Origin: a virus
Lineage: Duplodnaviria > Heunggongvirae > Uroviricota > Caudoviricetes
Virus record (IMG/VR): IMGVR_UViG_2671180847_000012
Length of the DNA stretch: 21,907 bases
Reading direction: 5' to 3' (one strand)
A program made the position numbers and the translations under genes. The notes under the pieces were generated by a model. The model ran no database searches and was not told where the DNA came from. It worked only from the letters and a program-made list of their open reading frames with translations. Below are positions 1 to 14,055 of the stretch, in pieces. How positions within the stretch are numbered: the stretch's first letter is position 1; every line of letters begins with the position of its first letter.

Positions 1-1275
1 TTATTTATTTGTAGCAAACTCAAACGGCCTTACCATACCGTTTCTGCTTGCATCAAGGTAGTCAGCCCACCATTGGAGCATCAGGCGACGTTGCTCAAGA
101 TGTTTTGCCTTGTGGGTATAAGCAGCACGGACGCTGTTGCTTTCCTTATGGCTCATTTGAAGCTCCACAGCGTCTTCTGACCATAGCCCGGACTCAATTA
201 AGGCACTACAGGCCAGAGTGCGGAAACCGTGTCCACAGATGTCCTGCTTCGTGTTATATCCCATATTACGCAGGGCTTTGTTGATGGTGTTTTCACTCAT
301 GGGTTTAAACGAGTCATAACAGCCAGTGAAGATTAATCCATCATCATGGCCTTCTTCATAAGTCAGTTGTCGGATCTCTTTGAGTATCTTCATGGCCTGC
401 TTACAAAGGGGAACGAAGTGCTTACGCTTCATTTTAGCCCCACGAGTCGAATGTTTGACGTTTTCAATTGCTTCACGCTGTTCGGGTATCACCCATAACT
501 TACTTTTGAAATCAATTTCAGACCAGCGAGCGAAACGCAACTCACTGGAACGAATGAAAATCATCAGATTGAGCTGTATTGCCAGTATGGTTAACCTGCG
601 GCCTTTGTATTCGGCAATTTTGTTCAGTAGCTGGGGTATTTCTTCCAGCTCAAGTGCAGGGCGGTGTTCAGTTTGTGGTTTCTGAACTGCACCTTCCATA
701 TCATAGGCTGGGTTATGGCGTATCAGCTTTTGCTGGACGGCATGACGCAGGATTGCCGTAATGTATTGTTGAATGCGCATGGCAACTTCAAGATAACCAA
801 GTGCCTCCACTTTTTTCACCGGAACCAGCAGATCACCCGTATCCAGTTCGGCAACATCTTTGTCACCGATTACCGGGAAGACATAAGTTTCAAGGCGCTT
901 CCATACGGCATCACCATAATCATCAGACCATTTTGTTTTCGTAGAGAACCACGCTTTGGCTACTGTTCTGAAGGAGCGTGTATTATCACGTTTGGCTTTA
1001 AGCTCTTTAACCTCTGCCTGTTTCTTTGCATTAGGGTCAATACCCTGAGCCAGAAGCCTTCTGGCCTCGTCACGGCGTTGTCTTGCGTCAGAAAGAGAAA
1101 CTGCAGGGTAAACACCAATAGAGAAGAGTTTTTGTTTCCCTTCGAAGCGGTAAGCCATTTGCCAGTATTTGGAACCCTTCGGGGTAACGCGAAGGAACAT
1201 ACCAAAGCCATCAGTCAGCTTGTATTCCTTCTCAAGGGGTTTTGCATTTTTTGCTTTGATATCAGTCAGTGACAT
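1..1275 (-). CDS. P4-family tyrosine integrase of a tRNA-Asn-associated island (island body is off-window to the left)
   Basis: Complete 424-aa ORF with GAGGGG Shine-Dalgarno upstream; N-terminal region typical of P4-like integrases and C-terminal catalytic-type region (HGFRTL...Y); lies directly beside the 3' end of tRNA-Asn and in the same orientation, the usual arrangement for tRNA-targeting islands. Confidence 0.85.
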   Translation of the reverse strand: MSLTDIKAKNAKPLEKEYKLTDGFGMFLRVTPKGSKYWQMAYRFEGKQKLFSIGVYPAVSLSDARQRRDEARRLLAQGIDPNAKKQAEVKELKAKRDNTRSFRTVAKAWFSTKTKWSDDYGDAVWKRLETYVFPVIGDKDVAELDTGDLLVPVKKVEALGYLEVAMRIQQYITAILRHAVQQKLIRHNPAYDMEGAVQKPQTEHRPALELEEIPQLLNKIAEYKGRRLTILAIQLNLMIFIRSSELRFARWSEIDFKSKLWVIPEQREAIENVKHSTRGAKMKRKHFVPLCKQAMKILKEIRQLTYEEGHDDGLIFTGCYDSFKPMSENTINKALRNMGYNTKQDICGHGFRTLACSALIESGLWSEDAVELQMSHKESNSVRAAYTHKAKHLEQRRLMLQWWADYLDASRNGMVRPFEFATNK

Positions 1276-1455: not shown

Positions 1456-1531
1456 TGGCTCCTCTGACTGGACTCGAACCAGTGACATACGGATTAACAG
1501 TCCGCCGTTCTACCGACTGAACTACAGAGGA
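1456..1531 (-). tRNA. asnT: tRNA-Asn (anticodon GUU)
   Basis: Reverse complement reads TCCTCTGTAGTTCAGTCGGTAGAACGGCGGACTGTTAATCCGTATGTCACTGGTTCGAGTCCAGTCAGAGGAGCCA, matching E. coli tRNA-Asn as I recall it, with a CUGUUAA anticodon loop. The asnT name is inferred from adjacency to mtfA. Confidence 0.92.
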
Positions 1532-1631: not shown

Positions 1632-2429
1632 TTAATGAACATTCGTCGCCGAAAACGAGTCTGTATCATTAGCGTGATGCAGTCTCTGCAAAGGATCTTG
1701 TTGATAAAATTGGCAGAAACGTTGCCACAATGAAGGGAAACGAGGAGCAAAAAGTTCTGGGGCGCTAAAGAAATATTCAGAAAGTACGGCAAAACATTCA
1801 GCAGGATCGCTGGCTGCATAAGCATCAATGCTCGCCGCATTCTCGCCAACCAATTCGATTTCTTCCTGAATGTTGTTCATTGCAGCATGAAGATCGTGTT
1901 CCCAGCCAGCAACCTCACGCAACGGAATAAAGGGAACTCCGCTGGCGCGATCGCCGTTACGGGTGTCCAGCTTATGAGCGACTTCATGAATAATCAGGTT
2001 AAAACCAGAAGCATCAAAAGAATCTTGTATATCCAACCAGTTCAAAACGATAGGCCCTTGCTGCCAGCTCTGACCTGACTGAACAATACGTTGGCTATGC
2101 ACCAGACCGATATCGTCTTCCCATTCATCATCGACCACAAATGGCGCAGGATAAATTAAGACTTCATGAAAACCATCCAGCCATTCCAGTCCTAACTCCA
2201 GAACGGGTAGGCAAAATAGAAGTGCTATCCGGCAGCTTCTTAATGAATCCAGTTCAAAGCCCTGTAAAGGAACAAGCCGCTTTTGCTGTAAAAAACGTTC
2301 GGCAAGAGTGACTAATTTGCTTTGTTCCTGTTCCGTCAGACCCGTTAAAAGGGGGATCGATAGTGCTTCCTGCCAGGGAAGGGCAGTTTGATGTGCTGAT
2401 TCTTGTACTTTCCAGGGCCACTTAATCAT
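1632..2429 (-). CDS. mtfA: MtfA (Mlc titration factor A, zinc-dependent peptidase)
   Basis: Translation matches E. coli MtfA/YeeI from MIKWPWKVQ to the C-terminus, including the HEVAH zinc motif. The ORF-track start at 2468 is a 13-codon upstream extension; the start is placed at the MIKWPW methionine. Confidence 0.9.
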
Positions 2430-2522
2430 CGTTTTGCTCGCAAACTCGTCACTTGAACAAAATTGCACGGACAGGGACTGTTAAAATGCCAAATTTCCTG
2501 GCATCATGGCAACCATCTGAAC

Positions 2523-2612
2523 GGAGAGATGCCGGAGCGGCTGAACGGACCGGTCTCGAAAACCGGAGTAGGGGCAACTCTACCGGGGGTTCAAATCCCC
2601 CTCTCTCCGCCA
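2523..2612 (+). tRNA. serU: tRNA-Ser (anticodon CGA)
   Basis: GGAGAGATGCCGGAGCGGCTGAACGGACCGGTCTCGAAAACCGGAGTAGGGGCAACTCTACCGGGGGTTCAAATCCCCCTCTCTCCGCCA; long variable arm typical of tRNA-Ser, anticodon loop CUCGAAA, encoded CCA end. Confidence 0.92.
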
Positions 2613-2743
2613 CTATTCAACTAGTTATGTTAAACGTTGTCTGTGATTCGGCTCAACTTGAGAAAATTTTGAGAGAAAAAAACTAGCTAATATCATCCCT
2701 TAACATTATCTTGATTGAGTCGTCGTAAACGGAACTACTGGAC

Positions 2744-3802
2744 TTGAGCATGAATTCATCTAGCGCATTTGCTACGCCTGTTGTTGCCAACAATAGTCAA
2801 CAAGTATTATCTGATTTGATTACTGCGCTTGAGCAGACCAATCTATATTCATTTATTTCTCAGATAGCAACTGTGTATGGATTTCCACCTGTTAAAGGTG
2901 GAATGGATGCGGTTTTGAAGGCAATCGAGGCATCTATACAGAATCCAACAGCTGCATTTCCTAATGCTACATTAAATTCACTTGAGAAAATGATCGATAG
3001 AATAATAATCTCTGGTAGTCACTATTATTCTATTGACGAAACACAAGACCCAAATTTCCAAAGTGTGATCCAACATGTTTTTAGTACAAGTGTAACTGAT
3101 TCAAGGTATGAAAATTCTTATCCAAGAAAGTTATATGATGGTAATTCACTTGGGAACAATATCAAAGGTCTTTATCTGACTAAATTAATTGATACTGGCG
3201 ATGGCTTTGCTTTTATTTTCTCATATGTTTATAGTGTTAAGATTAAGGGAAGTCGCGGTTTAGGACTATCGTATACCCCACAGCAACAATTTATAACAGT
3301 ATTTGTTCCCCATAATAAAAATAGGATCGAGTATCGTCTTCCAAAAAATTTAGGGAAACGGGAGACAGCAAAAGCGCTTGCATCGGTGCGTAATAAATTT
3401 TTTGATATGCTCATCAGTACTAATAATACTATTCATTTCAAACAATTGAATTTTTATAATGTGATCAATAGCATTATTACTGATAGATCGTTCGGGAAAG
3501 CAGTTCAGATAATTTATGTTGGTTCTAATACAGGTTGTGATGCTAATGTCATTGGCCGCAAAGATCCGACATATGAAGCTCGAGATGTCGAGATTACTAA
3601 TAAGAAAAGAAATGATATTTATACACCACGTGCTGTAGCCGTAAGATTTTACAGAAATAATGGTGACTTTACAGAATTGGGTCTAGATCCAAATAAGAAA
3701 TCTTGGTTGGATGATAATTTTTGTGGCGAATTTTATGTTGATTTTCCTGAAGATACAATCTCATTAAATGGTTTAATTGAAAATGTCATCTCACGAAAAT
3801 GA
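2744..3802 (+). CDS. Hypothetical protein, cargo gene A of an att-proximal three-gene operon (no family recognised)
   Basis: 352-aa ORF, markedly AT-rich by eye compared with the flanking host and phage genes; its stop overlaps the start of the next ORF. No motif I can assign. Confidence 0.6.
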   Translation: MSMNSSSAFATPVVANNSQQVLSDLITALEQTNLYSFISQIATVYGFPPVKGGMDAVLKAIEASIQNPTAAFPNATLNSLEKMIDRIIISGSHYYSIDETQDPNFQSVIQHVFSTSVTDSRYENSYPRKLYDGNSLGNNIKGLYLTKLIDTGDGFAFIFSYVYSVKIKGSRGLGLSYTPQQQFITVFVPHNKNRIEYRLPKNLGKRETAKALASVRNKFFDMLISTNNTIHFKQLNFYNVINSIITDRSFGKAVQIIYVGSNTGCDANVIGRKDPTYEARDVEITNKKRNDIYTPRAVAVRFYRNNGDFTELGLDPNKKSWLDDNFCGEFYVDFPEDTISLNGLIENVISRK

Positions 3803-4214
3803 TAGAATCAAGGTCATAATGATGCTTTTGTCTGAACAAAGGATATTATTGGATGAAATGAAAGATATCTTTCCTGAAGAAGATATCTTTCTATTCAATA
3901 ATGTTTTGGATTTCATTCAAAATAATTATGATAAAAATTATTACCCGATTAATGTATTAAGGCAAGCGGCAGGCTGTGAATCGGACTCGGATTTGCTAAA
4001 GTTAGTCCGTTATTTTTGTGGTGCACATTCTAAATTATTTAATATAACTTATTGCTATTATGATTTTGATGGTGAAGAAATCCCTATTTCAGCAGAATGC
4101 TACTATAATGCTCTGATTTGTGATATTTCTCCGATCAGTTTATTGTCTGGGCGCGAAATAGATGATTTCGATGTTAATAACATTTCTTTTTACTGTATAT
4201 TAAATGTCAAATAA
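3783..4214 (+). CDS. Hypothetical small acidic, Cys-rich protein, cargo gene B
   Basis: ORF overlaps the end of gene A and its stop overlaps the start of gene C. Start is ambiguous (TTG 3777, ATG 3783, or ATG 3819); no strong Shine-Dalgarno. Confidence 0.5.
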   Translation: MSSHENDRIKVIMMLLSEQRILLDEMKDIFPEEDIFLFNNVLDFIQNNYDKNYYPINVLRQAAGCESDSDLLKLVRYFCGAHSKLFNITYCYYDFDGEEIPISAECYYNALICDISPISLLSGREIDDFDVNNISFYCILNVK

Positions 4215-5001
4215 TTTTCTTCAAAATATAACACCTGCCGAATTAGCCGCGCTGGTAAACTTGAAGCCATTCGATGAGGATGTGTTTGTACAAAGTCTAT
4301 ATGCCGATATAAATAATGCAATTAAGCATATTGAGAAGACTGCGGATAAATATTATTCAGATGATGAAGATAAGATCACTAATTTACTGGTTTTATTTCT
4401 CAAAGGTGTTGGGTACAACGCATCTGAACAAACAAAATCTAATGGTTCCGTCGATATTACAGTTCAGGATCGTGATCAGAGCTTTACTTGGCTCGCTGAA
4501 GCAAAAAGAGGGAATTCGTATAATGGTGTCTTTGAAGGCATGTTACAGTTAGTAACAAGATATATTTCTGATGAGAAACATGCAGGTTTCTTTATTTACC
4601 ATCAGAAACTTGATTCATTAAGTTACTTTAAAAATTGGTTCAGCTACCTTAGCTCTGGTGATTTTGAAAAATATAAGGCTATTTCTGATAGGCTTGATGA
4701 GTGCCGATATCATTTTAAAAAGAGCCCCATAGCAAATGCGTTTACCGGTGATGAATGTTATTTTGACTACAATATAGTTTCAAAAAAGGGAAAAGAAGTA
4801 AAGGTTAGAAATTTTATTTTAAGTTTGCACTATAACCCTGCGGATAAAAGTGGACGAGAGAATAAATCCTTGAAGGTCGGACAAGCGAAAATTTATGTCA
4901 ATGAAGTGTGTGACAAGTGGTTTCGTGAGCAAGAACCTCCTGAAGATATTGATAAATTCATGAATTCACTACAATTAGTATTCCCTGAACTATTTGAATA
5001 A
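4204..5001 (+). CDS. Hypothetical protein, cargo gene C; possible PD-(D/E)xK-type nuclease
   Basis: 265-aa ORF overlapping the stop of gene B. Contains SVDITV followed about 15 residues later by WLAEAK, a spacing resembling the D...ExK nuclease core; this is a motif-level inference only. Confidence 0.55.
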   Translation: MSNNFLQNITPAELAALVNLKPFDEDVFVQSLYADINNAIKHIEKTADKYYSDDEDKITNLLVLFLKGVGYNASEQTKSNGSVDITVQDRDQSFTWLAEAKRGNSYNGVFEGMLQLVTRYISDEKHAGFFIYHQKLDSLSYFKNWFSYLSSGDFEKYKAISDRLDECRYHFKKSPIANAFTGDECYFDYNIVSKKGKEVKVRNFILSLHYNPADKSGRENKSLKVGQAKIYVNEVCDKWFREQEPPEDIDKFMNSLQLVFPELFE

Positions 5002-5019
5002 GTGCGCTAACGCGCACTT
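5000..5019. terminator. Perfect 8-bp hairpin (AAGTGCGC-TAAC-GCGCACTT) between convergent cargo gene C and int
   Basis: Seen directly in sequence immediately after the gene C stop; the following T-rich stretch is not contiguous, so intrinsic-terminator function is uncertain. Confidence 0.35.
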
Positions 5020-5024
5020 AGAGT

Positions 5025-6011
5025 CTAATTTTTATTTAATGTTGGTGTGATGCGTATTTTTCTATCATAAACCATGACTTGTGATTCAGTTTTGTGCCCA
5101 CTAAATAGCTGCTTTTCTTTTGATGATCCTTCATAGTCAGAAATTCCTTTAGCTTTCAGATCATGAAATGTACAATCCAGAGGTCTTCCAAGATAGTTGG
5201 CTGCCGCTGTTCTTGCTTTTCGCCATGCCTCATTAAACCCCTTGTAAGAGTAACGCTCTCCATACATGGTTTTAATTACTGACCCTGTTTCCCCCCACGA
5301 TCTGCAAATATCAACTGCCGCGCGCAGGCGATCAGTCCACGCCTTGATCTGCTTAACTCCCGTCTTGCCCTGCTGAATAAAAATTCCTTTATCCATTATC
5401 TGCGGCCAGTCCATTTTCAAGACATCGGATACCCTCGCTGCACATAAATAAGCTATTTCCATTGCGGCTTTAACTGGCTCACTGGCGTGTTCATAAATCG
5501 CCATGTATTCCTCATCTGTGATGTAGCGATCACGCTTTGGTTTAGGGAATTTATCTACTCCAACGCAAGGATTTCCAGGAACATATCCTCGTTGGTATCC
5601 CCAACGAAATACCCGAGACATTGAACTGTGCTCATGGTTAGCTTGGACACGACTTTTCTTTCCTCTGGCATCCATATACCGCCTTACATGTTCTGGTCTA
5701 ATAGTCTTTGCTTCCGCTTCGCCAAAAACAGCAAGGAGATATTTTTCGTGGGCTAGATAATCCTTTTGAGTTCGTGGTGCCAAATCTGCATAATCGGCAC
5801 TATTGAGAAATTTCTTCCAAAGCTGGGCAAAAGTTATTCGTCTTTTTCTCCCCTCTACAATTTTTTCAAAAGCAACCCAGACATCTGCTTTTGTTGCATT
5901 GGCTGATGCAATTTTTTCTGTTGTTCCCCCTGGTTTCCAGTAGTAGCCAGAAGGGCGGAAATATACCCCCTTCGGCATCCATTCATTACCAGGTGCTCGT
6001 TTTCGACCCAT
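5025..6011 (-). CDS. Lambda-family tyrosine integrase (prophage Int)
   Basis: 328-aa ORF with segments resembling lambda Int (QQGKTGVKQIKAW, LFSGHKTESQVMVY with the C-terminal tyrosine); followed 4 nt upstream by a small xis-like gene. Confidence 0.9.
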   Translation of the reverse strand: MGRKRAPGNEWMPKGVYFRPSGYYWKPGGTTEKIASANATKADVWVAFEKIVEGRKRRITFAQLWKKFLNSADYADLAPRTQKDYLAHEKYLLAVFGEAEAKTIRPEHVRRYMDARGKKSRVQANHEHSSMSRVFRWGYQRGYVPGNPCVGVDKFPKPKRDRYITDEEYMAIYEHASEPVKAAMEIAYLCAARVSDVLKMDWPQIMDKGIFIQQGKTGVKQIKAWTDRLRAAVDICRSWGETGSVIKTMYGERYSYKGFNEAWRKARTAAANYLGRPLDCTFHDLKAKGISDYEGSSKEKQLFSGHKTESQVMVYDRKIRITPTLNKN

Positions 6012-7530: not shown

Positions 7531-8355
7531 TCAGGCGGTGAAAGTACCAATAAAGGTTTCTACTTTGCTGTCCTTGAATTTCTCAACAAGCAGATCACGA
7601 AATTCGTTAGCCATTTCTTCCTGCACCGCCTCCAGCTGAATAATGCGCAGAACCAGTACCGGACGATCGCCAGTGATAATGCTGAGGCGTAATTTAAACG
7701 GACGTTCTTTCAGACCTTCAAACGGAATGCATTTAAATTCAAATGCCACTGGCATAATGTCTTTGGTCTTCGCTTCGACAGACTCCATCAGGGAGCGTTT
7801 GCCGCTGAAGTCATTATCTTCAAAATCAGCGGTCTGGTTTGCTTCAATCGTGATTTTACGGACCGCCGCAGCCGCTTTTGTTGCCTGAATGGTGTCACCA
7901 TTAGCATCAAAGCCCACAAGGTAGTCAGCCCAGTCTTCAATCCATTCTGCCAGTGATTTCTGGGAGTTACGCTCGCCATTAACAGACAACAGAGCAGAGA
8001 ACGGTGCTGTCTTTTTCAGTTTGAGAGTGGCGGTGTTATCTGCGTGACCTGGTTCATCAATAGTACCCAGGTTAAGCACACTGACGGCACGCATATTATC
8101 AGCATCGATAAAGCAGCGGGTGCCTTCATCTGCAAGATCTTTAGAATAACGGGTAAAGTCATCGATGCTGGCAGTGGAAAGCGCACCACGGAAACGGAAG
8201 CGATTTAAATTAAATTTTTCCAGATCATGAATGCGGAAATTCTCAGGCAATGCCACAGCATCGGCACCAATCTTACTGATAATTTCATTAACACCCTGAG
8301 CAGAAATAAGGGCATGGATTTGATTAATTGCGGTTGCGTCTAAGTTCTGAGACAT
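7531..8355 (-). CDS. YfdQ-like phage protein (DUF2303 family)
   Basis: 274-aa ORF resembling prophage YfdQ-type proteins; GAGGA Shine-Dalgarno upstream; sits in the yfdP-yfdQ-yfdR-like order. Confidence 0.7.
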
Positions 8356-12913: not shown

Positions 12914-13402
12914 ATGAGTCTGTTAAATGACGTTCAGAAATTCATTGAAGCCCATCCGGGGTGTACTTCCGGAGACATTGCGGATGCTTTTGCAGGTTAC
13001 TCACGGCAGCGCGTTCTGCAGTCTGCAAGCAAGTTACGTCAGAGTGGGCGTGTGGCTCACCGTTGTGAAGGAGATACACGCAGACATTTCCCGCGCCTGA
13101 CTGAGAGAGCGCAGGAGCCGGAACCACAACCAGTTCGTGAAACCAGACCTGTGCGCAATTTCTATGTCGGCACTAACGATCCACGGGTGATTTTGTGCCT
13201 GACCCGCCAGGCTGAAGAACTGGAGTCCAGGGGCTTATACCGTCGTGCTGCAACGGTGTGGATGGCGGCATTCCGTGAAAGCCACTCCCAGCCAGAACGA
13301 AACAATTTTCTGGCGCGTCGTGAACGGTGTTTACGGAAAAGCAGTAAGCGGGCTGCATCAGGTGAAGAGTGGTATCTCTCAGGGAATTACGTGGGGGCTT
13401 AA
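12914..13402 (+). CDS. Hypothetical regulator-like phage protein (possible PerC-like C-terminal motif)
   Basis: GGGGG precedes the ATG at 12914 (ORF-track GTG start at 12908). The C-terminal segment LESRGLYRRAATVWMAAF...RRERC resembles PerC/Pch-type activators from memory only. Confidence 0.45.
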   Translation: MSLLNDVQKFIEAHPGCTSGDIADAFAGYSRQRVLQSASKLRQSGRVAHRCEGDTRRHFPRLTERAQEPEPQPVRETRPVRNFYVGTNDPRVILCLTRQAEELESRGLYRRAATVWMAAFRESHSQPERNNFLARRERCLRKSSKRAASGEEWYLSGNYVGA

Positions 13403-14055
13403 TGAGTAATAAATATTGCCAGGCGCTGGTGGAACTGCGGAACAAACCAGCCCATGAACTGAAGGAAGTGGGCGATCAGTGGCGCACGCCGGACAACATT
13501 TTCTGGGGAATTAACACCCTGTTTGGCCCGTTTGTTCTGGATCTGTTCACTGACGGTGATAACGCCAAATGTGCTGCGTATTACACGGCGGAAGACAACG
13601 CGCTGGCGCATGACTGGTCAGAACGCCTTGCGGAGCTTAAAGGTGCTGCCTTTGGTAATCCCCCATACAGCCGCGCCAGTCAGCATGAGGGGCAATACAT
13701 CACCGGTATGCGTTACATCATGAAGCATGCCAGTGCCATGCGTGATAAAGGCGGGCGCTATGTTTTCCTGATCAAAGCTGCCACCAGCGAAGTGTGGTGG
13801 CCGGAAGATGCAGATCATATTGCTTTTATTCGCGGGCGTATTGGTTTTGAACTGCCTGCCTGGTTTATCCCGAAGGATGAGAAGCAGGTGCCGACAGGCG
13901 CTTTCTTCGCTGGTGCTATTGCTGTTTTCGACAAGACCTGGAAGGGACCGGCAATCAGCTACATCGGGCGCGATGAACTTGAGGCATGTGGTGAGGCCTT
14001 TCTGGCGCAGGTTCGCCAGCAGGCAGAAAAACTGGTCAGGGAGATGGCGGCATGA
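13402..14055 (+). CDS. Phage Dam-family DNA N6-adenine methyltransferase
   Basis: NPPY catalytic motif (AFGNPPYS); size about 217 aa; ATG overlaps the upstream stop (TAATG). Confidence 0.8.
   Translation: MSNKYCQALVELRNKPAHELKEVGDQWRTPDNIFWGINTLFGPFVLDLFTDGDNAKCAAYYTAEDNALAHDWSERLAELKGAAFGNPPYSRASQHEGQYITGMRYIMKHASAMRDKGGRYVFLIKAATSEVWWPEDADHIAFIRGRIGFELPAWFIPKDEKQVPTGAFFAGAIAVFDKTWKGPAISYIGRDELEACGEAFLAQVRQQAEKLVREMAA

Follow-up and report, generated by a model that had tools for sequence, protein, structure and literature searches.

A mobile three-gene cassette with a predicted PD-(D/E)xK nuclease beside the serU attachment site of a lambdoid prophage, a candidate anti-phage defence system

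At the cos-proximal old/tin hotspot of P2, more than one-third of the cloned cassettes proved active (PMC9122126), and at the P4 hotspot six of eight random unknown loci protected against phages (2026 preprint, 10.64898/2026.02.27.708500). From the P2 hotspot, Rousset et al. (2022, PMC9122126) described Rst_3HP, which consists of three hypothetical proteins and protects against P1, and listed system #145, 'DUF5939 | DpnII-MboI' (Table S5B), which was only catalogued, without a name, from 14 occurrences; the same work reports a PD-(D/E)xK-type (MmcB-like) HHpred match for protein 3 of gop-beta-cII (Table S3). Here we analyse a window of 21,907 nucleotides, the whole stretch of IMG/VR record IMGVR_UViG_2671180847_000012 (Caudoviricetes), which carries three genes, A, B and C, between a tRNA-Ser gene and the integrase of a lambdoid prophage. 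Like this trio, Rst_3HP comprises three genes for proteins without recognised domains and is found in the P2 hotspot, but its gene sizes differ (333/359/227 aa versus 350/143/265). Identity between the two was rejected, HMM and BLASTP comparisons with the published Hp1, Hp2 and Hp3 sequences giving bit scores of at most 0.3 and E >= 0.06 in a database of three sequences.

The initial annotation had been unable to place any of the three proteins in a family and had proposed an undescribed defence or exclusion system. Profile searches agree on the first count: A, B and C all lack a match to a characterised family. Neither Pfam nor NCBIfam matched A, B or C of the window, and PADLOC-DB v2.0.0, a check that the annotation had suggested, gave no match at E <= 1. 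PADLOC models hotspot systems, and no homology to P2 old/tin or P4 gop-beta-cII came to light in these searches. The word 'undescribed' does not fully apply, as a P2-borne version had already been catalogued as system #145 (14 of 18,150 E. coli P2 loci; PMC9122126). Literature searches with accession numbers and PHROG ids of the trio found nothing, C-family signature peptides were absent from the DefensePredictor supplements, and no experiment on the trio reducing phage infection was found in the literature.

Layout and attachment-site context

An AT-rich block of three ORFs had been reported between tRNA-Ser and the integrase, and these features are present as described. The locus comprises the following elements.

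2523-2612, + strand: tRNA-Ser(CGA) gene serU (ARAGORN), whose 3' end is the prophage attL core and the left edge of the cargo interval
2659-2681, + strand: invariant 23-bp element TGAGAAAATTTTGAGAGAAAAAA, most likely part of the att arm (integrase arm-type or IHF sites)
2669-2696, + strand: candidate sigma-70-like promoter TTGAGA-16-TATCAT (consensus scan, 10/12 matches), 54 nt upstream of gene A
2750-3802, + strand: gene A, 350 aa, basic (pI 8.6), soluble
3783-4214, + strand: gene B, 143 aa, acidic (pI 4.3), 6 Cys
4204-5001, + strand: gene C, 265 aa, predicted PD-(D/E)xK nuclease (restriction-endonuclease fold) with predicted catalytic residues E55, D84, E99-x-K101 and Q115
4999-5020, no strand assigned: hairpin AAGTGCGC-TAAC-GCGCACTT plus an extra U-A pair (9 bp), between the convergent gene C and int
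5025-6011, - strand: tyrosine integrase of the lambdoid prophage (ORF call), the context of the trio, convergent with gene C

The three same-strand ORFs (2744/2750-3802, 3777/3783-4214 and 4204-5001) overlap at both junctions, as originally noted, by 20 nt (A/B) and 11 nt (B/C). Their Shine-Dalgarno sequences are as poor as first described, with only a weak GGA before A and no good one before B or C. RefSeq annotation and the N-termini of homologs favour ATG 2750 for A and ATG 3783 for B; of the sizes first given, 143 aa for B and 265 aa for C stand, and the 352 aa of A, counted from a TTG start, become 350 aa from ATG 2750. Relative to a copy of 79% identity, dN/dS is 0.069 for A, 0.114 for B and 0.071 for C. 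Values of 0.07-0.11 imply that the ORFs are real genes rather than chance frames, and they point to strong purifying selection on all three.

The 8-bp hairpin reported before the convergent int is likewise present and is extended to 9 bp by one U-A pair. It has free energies of -13.9 and -14.8 kcal/mol, and the z-scores for the + and - strands are -2.5 and -4.8, respectively. The 79%-identical copy (L002) keeps the stem with a changed loop, and the Atlantibacter locus (L010) has a different hairpin at the equivalent place. The element probably serves as a bidirectional transcription stop; a consensus terminator scan of the region did not call it, because it has no adjacent T-run.

The GC content of the block is 0.31-0.35, compared with 0.42-0.49 on both sides, which bears out the AT-richness seen at the outset. 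Homologous trios in seven other genomes have GC contents of 0.33-0.35, against 0.42-0.56 in their flanks. The trios are uniformly low in GC and foreign-looking, whatever the host.

The order tRNA, trio, int is common to loci L001-L003, L005 and L010, and in E. coli the integrase is strictly linked to the trio. An integrase of at least 99% identity is present in exactly the 14 genomes with a trio of at least 99% identity, and a search for alternative cargo of the same integrase found it, at nucleotide identities of at least 85%, only with the trio. More distant serU integrases are without any cargo, and in the related serU prophages of E. coli HS, O157:H7 SS52 and E2855 the integrase directly abuts the tRNA, with the trio missing. 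Because these related prophages wholly lack it, the trio is a dispensable add-on. The empty tRNA-int junctions favour the earlier idea of att-proximal cargo, and the serU attL-int interval of this prophage lineage can be regarded as a cargo site that is vacant in related phages.

The 23-bp element is 100% conserved among serU loci whose cassette proteins share only 43-58% identity; it occurs only at serU/int loci, and where the trio lies in a Pantoea, P4-like or P2 context the element is missing from the upstream region. As it tracks serU/int and not the cassette, it was read as an att-arm element, and a role as cassette promoter or operator was rejected. The number of sigma-70-like sites in the region equals chance expectation, the candidate promoter is no better than chance, and neither L005 nor L010 conserves its -10 hexamer.

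Distribution and co-inheritance of the trio

Two questions raised by the initial annotation were whether the trio travels together and whether it always lies beside an integrase. On the first, in each of the 44 informative loci A, B and C adjoin one another on one strand, with the gene order unchanged. Identities run from 100% down to about 25-35%, with the components co-diverging, and even in the remotest set each of the three is homologous at the profile-profile level (A: probability 99.4%, E 5e-21; B, by hhalign of the remote B-like proteins: 96.8%, E 2e-10). These comparisons indicate that the three genes form one co-inherited unit.

The second question is answered in the negative. The trio is att-proximal in lambdoid, siphovirus-like and podovirus-like prophages and adjoins int in a PM2-like (non-tailed) Vibrio prophage, but other copies follow tail-fibre genes, separate Q from stx1A in Stx1a phages or, in P2-like phages (Serratia, Rahnella, Photobacterium, Moritella, E. 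coli), lie between the portal gene gpQ and the replication gene gpA. Further copies lie directly after Ogr/Delta in a P4-like element and on plasmids, where the neighbours are TacA-GNAT and RepA in Enterobacter, AbiEi in Pseudomonas and Fic in Vibrio. In Rahnella, the trio shares its hotspot with the FRG-domain candidate PDC-S15. The position between Q and stx1A in Stx1a-converting phages makes the cassette relevant to Shiga-toxin phage biology, and the family ranges from Enterobacterales to cyanobacteria. It is rare, occurring in 16 of 5,426 complete E. coli genomes and in 5 of about 100,000 species representatives, and no near-identical DNA was found in the phage collection. One copy has an IS1 inserted in gene A, with B and C intact.

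The component proteins

Gene C had been read as a possible PD-(D/E)xK nuclease from D84 (in SVDITV) and E99/K101 (in WLAEAK), and this reading is upheld by the invariance of these residues and by the modelled fold. The structural model is confident and contains the alpha-beta-beta-beta-alpha-beta core, and E55, D56, D84, E99, K101 and Q115 are invariant among 13 sequences of 24-52% identity from five orders. An independent HHpred label for the P2-type C homolog, 'DpnII-MboI' (PF18742), agrees with this assignment (Rousset et al. 2022, PMC9122126). On the modelling evidence, gene C is predicted to encode a PD-(D/E)xK nuclease, the candidate effector of the cassette. No curated superfamily model in Pfam or NCBIfam matched C at E <= 1, and PDB sequence-profile searches gave no match for A or C. 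Foldseek of C against the PDB returned nothing significant (best E 0.03), so the assignment is one of fold class. In all contexts inspected, the cassette neither contains nor adjoins a methyltransferase gene, the only ones being Dam-type phage genes kilobases away; a classical type II restriction-modification system was rejected because the cognate methyltransferase is missing in all contexts.

All three proteins are soluble, with a maximum 19-residue Kyte-Doolittle mean of at most 0.9 and no hydrophobic or transmembrane segment. Gene A represents an orphan family and is a candidate sensor or nucleic-acid-binding subunit. Its structure model is poor (pLDDT 52), and a weak RdgC/TBP-like structural hint comes from that model. 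Membership of the RdgC family is unsupported by sequence or profile: Pfam, RdgC (PF04381) included, gave no match for 18 members of the A family, and hhalign of A against phage RdgC gave a probability of 0.1%. Gene B, likewise an orphan family with a weak link to phrog_11490, is a candidate adaptor or inhibitor of the nuclease. It had been described as small, acidic and Cys-rich; the acidity and the six Cys stand, but only C91 and C138 are conserved in the family, so Cys-richness is not a conserved metal-site feature, and a Cys4 zinc-binding protein, with just two Cys invariant, was ruled out. No sensor, NTPase or regulatory domain was recognisable in A or B.

Functional readings and described systems

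With moderate confidence, we regard the block as a self-contained, horizontally mobile cassette, carried as accessory cargo by temperate phages, satellites and plasmids, that most likely serves, by expression from the prophage, as a defence (exclusion) system against phages or MGEs. The trio resides in experimentally validated defence hotspots (gpQ-trio-gpA, as well as a P4-like element and next to PDC-S15), and its occupancy of the validated P2 gpA-gpQ hotspot strengthens the defence reading. The earlier defence proposal gains strong circumstantial support from this occupancy, defence itself being what we infer. Also counted in its favour were the behaviour of the trio as a unit, the purifying selection on all three genes, the nuclease model of C with its invariant residues, the other classic cargo sites, the absence of the trio from related serU prophages, the similarity of other-clade C proteins to PDC-S54 and the uniformly low GC. 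Counted against it were the rarity of the trio, the IS1 in one copy of A, the chance-level promoter-like site, the missing match to curated models, the non-significant Foldseek result for C, the poor model of A and the lack of recognisable domains in A and B. Hotspots also harbour cargo unrelated to defence: about one-quarter of those of P2 carry partition systems and about 2% a cytolethal distending toxin (PMC9122126). Of the unknown proteins in P2 hotspots, machine learning scored only 15-32% as antiviral.

In the proposed working of the defence system, A, B and C would be made together from one operon, their overlapping frames being consistent with translational coupling. C would be the effector, a Mg2+-dependent PD-(D/E)xK DNase, as its fold and invariant catalytic set suggest in silico. 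Because no methyltransferase accompanies it, its two obligate partners would have to hold its activity in check or direct it. For a bound inhibitor or adaptor, the best candidate is the acidic B, whose gene directly precedes and overlaps that of C; the basic A, with its weak RdgC/TBP-like hint, is the best candidate to recognise an infection cue or foreign nucleic acid and to license C. Once activated, C may cut the DNA of the invader or, in an abortive-infection mode, that of the host. A narrower version, offered tentatively as possible but not probable, takes the trio for a new methyltransferase-free restriction or abortive system in which an orphan, possibly RdgC/TBP-like, DNA-embracing A senses foreign or replicating DNA, B is the adaptor and C a BamHI-fold nuclease. 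If true, it would bring two new folds or families into the immune repertoire, serving tailed and PM2-like phages, satellites and plasmids.

Several of the same features would also suit a tripartite toxin-antitoxin or addiction module that stabilises its carrier, with C as nuclease toxin, B as antitoxin, A as regulator or chaperone, and exclusion as a secondary effect. A small acidic B directly upstream of and overlapping the nuclease gene, self DNA without methyltransferase protection, plasmid copies among stability and TA genes (TacA-GNAT, RepA, AbiEi, Fic) and a spread over many kinds of mobile element all fit such a module. We nevertheless judge it unlikely, as A, the largest component at 350 aa, is conserved to the same degree (dN/dS 0.069) and shows neither an HTH nor any known regulator domain, the trio has no match among TA family models, post-segregational killing would be of little gain to integrated prophages, and the P2/P4 hotspot position favours exclusion functions; the IS1 tolerated in A, with B and C intact downstream, is uninformative because of polarity. 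Less probable still is a lytic-cycle or DNA-metabolism accessory module (host-DNA degradation, recombination/repair or replication-intermediate processing) instead of lysogen immunity. The cassette never lies within early or recombination operons, but forms a separately oriented, terminator-bounded unit at att-proximal, cos-proximal and moron sites, convergent with int; it also occurs on non-phage plasmids, related phages manage without it, and the resemblance of A to RdgC lacks sequence support (hhalign 0.1%) and derives from the pLDDT-52 model.

The position of the trio (att-proximal, beside int or a tailspike), its three genes and its low GC recall gtrABC, the classic three-gene AT-rich cassette beside att/int in temperate enterobacterial phages. 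However, all three proteins are soluble with no transmembrane segment, Pfam gave no GtrA, glycosyltransferase or acyltransferase match, and C has a nuclease fold; a gtrABC-type lysogenic-conversion operon for surface modification (GtrA flippase, GtrB glycosyltransferase, GtrC) was rejected and is almost certainly not the explanation. Most known anti-defence proteins come from small single genes that are expressed early in infection. The trio is unlike these typical genes: at 2.3 kb it is an operon of three genes that includes an enzymatic nuclease, its orientation is independent of the phage early operons, and it is also carried by large plasmids and a non-tailed PM2-like prophage. That it is a counter-defence or inter-element weapon, by which the carrier destroys competitor DNA or a host defence component, seems very unlikely to us, although its hotspot and cargo distribution is the same as that of defence systems and the variable regions of mobile elements are also places where genes for anti-defence cluster (PMC12629846).

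Should defence be confirmed, the trio would become a named system, two of whose component families (A and B) are without detectable relatives or assigned folds. It would also be a clear case of a single cassette that moves among all major classes of bacterial mobile element, from lambdoid, P2-like, Stx and PM2-like phages to P4-like satellites and plasmids. The cassette fits on a clearly bounded fragment of 2.4 kb, and its catalytic residues are predicted.

Among described nucleases, the type II enzymes BamHI, OkrAI, BstYI and BglII share only 10-14% identity with C, the Foldseek comparison is not significant and nothing supports a common sequence specificity; unlike them, C has no adjacent cognate methyltransferase and always has two obligate partner genes. 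McrC of McrBC, HamA of Hachiman and NucC are partner-regulated PD-(D/E)xK effectors with no sequence-level relationship to C, and the partners in the trio are without GTPase, helicase or nucleotide-sensor domains. PDC-S54, a single-gene PADLOC system that is itself only a candidate (410-aa profile), matches through its C-terminal region (~233-395) the nuclease domain of C from other clades (E 4e-7, 8e-5 and 8e-3 for P2-type, Pseudomonas and Stx-type trios, respectively), whereas C of the window does not reach E <= 1. System #145 corresponds to the whole trio: its proteins 1, 2 and 3 are colinear homologs of B, A and C, and protein 3 matches C of locus L029, whose proteins are 33% (A), 33% (B) and 38% (C) identical to those of the window (E 1e-19 to 1e-61). 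It belongs to a different clade, about 33-38% identical to the window proteins, and occupies the P2 gpQ-gpA hotspot rather than the serU-int interval.

Organization and co-inheritance of the three-gene cassette

The window consists of Escherichia coli chromosome with a prophage, and the cassette occupies the interval between serU and the prophage integrase:

1-1275, minus strand: P4-type integrase of the yersiniabactin (ybt) island, 424 aa, intact in the window
1456-1531, minus strand: tRNA-Asn
1632-2468, minus strand: mtfA
2523-2612, plus strand: serU, tRNA-Ser(CGA)
2750-3802, plus strand: gene A, 350 aa
3783-4214, plus strand: gene B, 143 aa
4204-5001, plus strand: gene C
5025-6011, minus strand: tyrosine integrase (int), convergent to the trio
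beyond the integrase: DUF4224 Xis-like gene, then lambdoid prophage

Since a P4-type integrase lies at tRNA-Asn and a prophage at serU, mtfA is flanked by two integrative elements within 4 kb. In strain GPEC657, where this P4-type integrase flanks the ybt island, the gene carries a pseudogene annotation with an internal stop.

The operon anatomy described in the initial annotation was confirmed. Three same-strand ORFs overlap (A/B by 20 nt, B/C by 11 nt) in an AT-rich block (GC 0.31–0.35 versus 0.42–0.49 on either side), with no Shine-Dalgarno sequence before B or C and a weak one before A. RefSeq and homolog N-termini support ATG 3783 and the 143 aa given for B, but favor ATG 2750 (350 aa) over the 352 aa given for A. 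The terminal hairpin is present at 4999–5020 (free energy about -14 kcal/mol), although its stem has 9 bp rather than 8; in the 79%-identical copy of the cassette the stem is retained and the loop altered, and Atlantibacter carries a different hairpin in the same position. All three genes are under purifying selection (dN/dS against the 79% copy: A 0.069, B 0.114, C 0.071) and are genes rather than chance ORFs. Their products are soluble, with pI values of 8.6 (A, basic), 4.3 (B, acidic) and 5.4 (C).

The genes do travel together: among all loci with enough DNA to judge, window included, A, B and C are contiguous, with order and strand unchanged, in 44 of 44. They also diverge together, with identities to the window of ~76/76/85% (A/B/C) in E. 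coli L37 and EC7, 43–58% in a second E. coli type, Atlantibacter and Pantoea, and 30–43% in P2-like phages. For C, identity is at most 27% in the PM2-like prophage of Vibrio, in Stx1a phages, in Moraxella phage Mcat13 and on the plasmids. Homology of A (probability 99.4%, E 5e-21, 290 columns) and B (96.8%, E 2e-10) in the remotest set required profile–profile comparison. The GC of every trio is 0.33–0.35, independent of host GC, which raises the possibility of H-NS-type silencing. Immediately 3′ of the trio on a plasmid of Pseudomonas sp. HS-18 is a gene for an MvaT/MvaU (H-NS-like) xenogeneic silencer (L037 5702-6064).

The cassette is rare, occurring in 16 of 5,426 complete E. coli genomes, 5 of ~100,000 species-representative genomes and 14 of 18,150 E. 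coli P2 hotspot loci. Among the 16 E. coli genomes only one copy is disrupted, that of E-ge-1, where IS1B lies within the 5′ end of A (L046 1766-2463, approximately window 2880) and B and C are intact. In the second E. coli type (43–48% identity), C and int are separated by an additional 221-aa ORF (L005 9343-10008) without a Pfam or PADLOC match, possibly a fourth component or else separate cargo. In Mcat13 (KR093637; L036 3455-5582), the homologues are overlapping ORFs of 352, 153 and 210 aa, missing from the GenBank annotation.

A predicted nuclease and two orphan partners

As the initial annotation had stated, none of the proteins could be assigned to a family by sequence-level searches of Pfam, NCBIfam and PADLOC. 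Only C matches a PHROG (phrog_9664, 1e-44, annotated unknown function), and profile searches of A and C against all PDB sequences gave no match. Among 5.8 billion clustered proteins, related clusters numbered 15 for C, 7 for A and 3 for B, all from Enterobacterales. An exhaustive HMMER profile search of 1.84 billion representatives returned just 21 proteins for A, nearly all of 340–365 aa, and the structure model of A is poor (pLDDT 52). B was described as small, acidic and Cys-rich; the acidity stands, but only two of its six cysteines are invariant in the family, which rules out a Cys4 site.

The PD-(D/E)xK core with D...ExK residues initially guessed for C is well supported. Its AlphaFold model (pLDDT 81) displays the canonical alpha-beta-beta-beta-alpha-beta core, and the Foldseek list consists mostly of PD-(D/E)xK folds, none significant (best E 0.03), so that a fold class is established and kinship with a particular enzyme is not. 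Across 13 C proteins (24–52% identity; Enterobacterales, Vibrio, Moraxella, Pseudomonas and one cyanobacterium), E55, D56, G81, D84, W96, E99, K101, G112, Q115, L116, R119, Y120, W145 and P212 are invariant, including the guessed catalytic set. Independently of this analysis, Rousset et al. 2022 (PMC9122126) labelled a P2-borne C homolog 'DpnII-MboI' (PF18742, PD-(D/E)xK family) via HHpred. By model and alignment, C thus has a PD-(D/E)xK nuclease fold with an intact catalytic site. P2-type C proteins end in a poly-acidic tail, EEYEDEDEDEDEDED... (L029, about 7780-7843), missing from the window's C and from a short-C clade (210–242 aa) that lacks the whole C-terminal helical region. A prophage Dam-type N6-adenine methyltransferase (window about 13400-14050, from L001 19790-20412) lies several kilobases from the cassette; being non-adjacent and inconsistently present in P2-type carriers, it is unsupported as a cognate methylase.

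Genomic contexts

The trio is not confined to positions next to integrases and occupies seven contexts:

lambdoid prophages (E. coli, Atlantibacter): serU attL to int
siphovirus-like and podovirus-like prophages (Pantoea): opposite prophage end, after tail-fibre/tailspike genes
P4-like element (Rouxiella): directly after Ogr/Delta
P2-like phages (Serratia, Rahnella, Photobacterium, Moritella) and IMG/VR contigs: interval from gpQ (portal) to gpA (replication)
Stx1a-converting phages: between antiterminator Q and stx1A, opposite strand
PM2-like prophage (Vinavirales; Vibrio): adjoining int
plasmids (Pseudomonas, Calothrix, Vibrio campbellii, Enterobacter): beside AbiEi, Fic and TacA-GNAT genes

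The proposed att-proximal cargo behavior is evident at serU: in related prophages (E. coli HS, O157:H7 SS52, E2855), int lies 8–112 bp from the tRNA and the gap is empty, which makes the trio an add-on of 2.3 kb. Within E. coli, linkage of the trio to the integrase allele of the window is strict, and early regions differ between the serU-int carriers. With the phage genome drawn as a circle, the Pantoea position also belongs to this att-proximal cargo region, on its opposite side. A 23-bp element, TGAGAAAATTTTGAGAGAAAAAA, with an internal TGAGA direct repeat (2659-2681, 47 nt past tRNA-Ser), is 100% identical among serU prophages whose cassette proteins are just 43–58% identical; its restriction to serU/int loci makes an arm-type integrase site or an IHF site within attL probable.

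Rousset et al. 2022 (PMC9122126) defined the gpQ-gpA interval as the cos-proximal old/tin hotspot, which places the trio in a validated defence hotspot. At P4 hotspots, six of eight random loci without known function were protective (2026 preprint, 10.64898/2026.02.27.708500). In a Rahnella ecdela P2-like prophage, the gpQ-gpA hotspot also holds an FRG-domain protein that matches PADLOC candidate PDC-S15 (L043 10893-11663). In the Stx1a-converting phage Stx1_499 and six sister phages (L034 3454-5561), the remote trio corresponds to phrog_12777, phrog_11490 and phrog_9664, all annotated unknown function.

Interpretation and relation to known systems

On balance, we slightly favor the view that the cassette encodes a mobile defence or exclusion system based on a nuclease and as yet without a name. 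The trio would be expressed in lysogens and act on phage, with A as a possible sensor, B as a putative inhibitor or adaptor and C as the active nuclease. A toxin–antitoxin-like stabilization module, to which the order of an acidic B followed by a nuclease gene and the plasmid neighborhoods point, is rather unlikely; a lytic or DNA-metabolism accessory is less probable still, and a counter-defence weapon is the most doubtful of these. Conversion of the gtrABC type is refuted.

The defence or exclusion reading is partly supported: every part of the initial proposal testable in silico held, and its novelty did so in part. The P2-type trio had been catalogued as system #145, 'DUF5939 | DpnII-MboI', with 14 occurrences (Table S5B of Rousset et al. 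2022, PMC9122126), unnamed and missing from that study's tables listing cloned systems. The 2026 preprint (10.64898/2026.02.27.708500) does not name it either, and cassette signature peptides and accessions do not occur in the DefensePredictor supplements or searchable full-text literature. Direct comparison ruled out identity with Rst_3HP. PADLOC candidate PDC-S54 is matched in its C-terminal part by C proteins of other clades, whereas the window's own C gives no match. With A and B remaining orphan families, the trio would join the multigene nuclease-effector cassettes of mobile-element hotspots.
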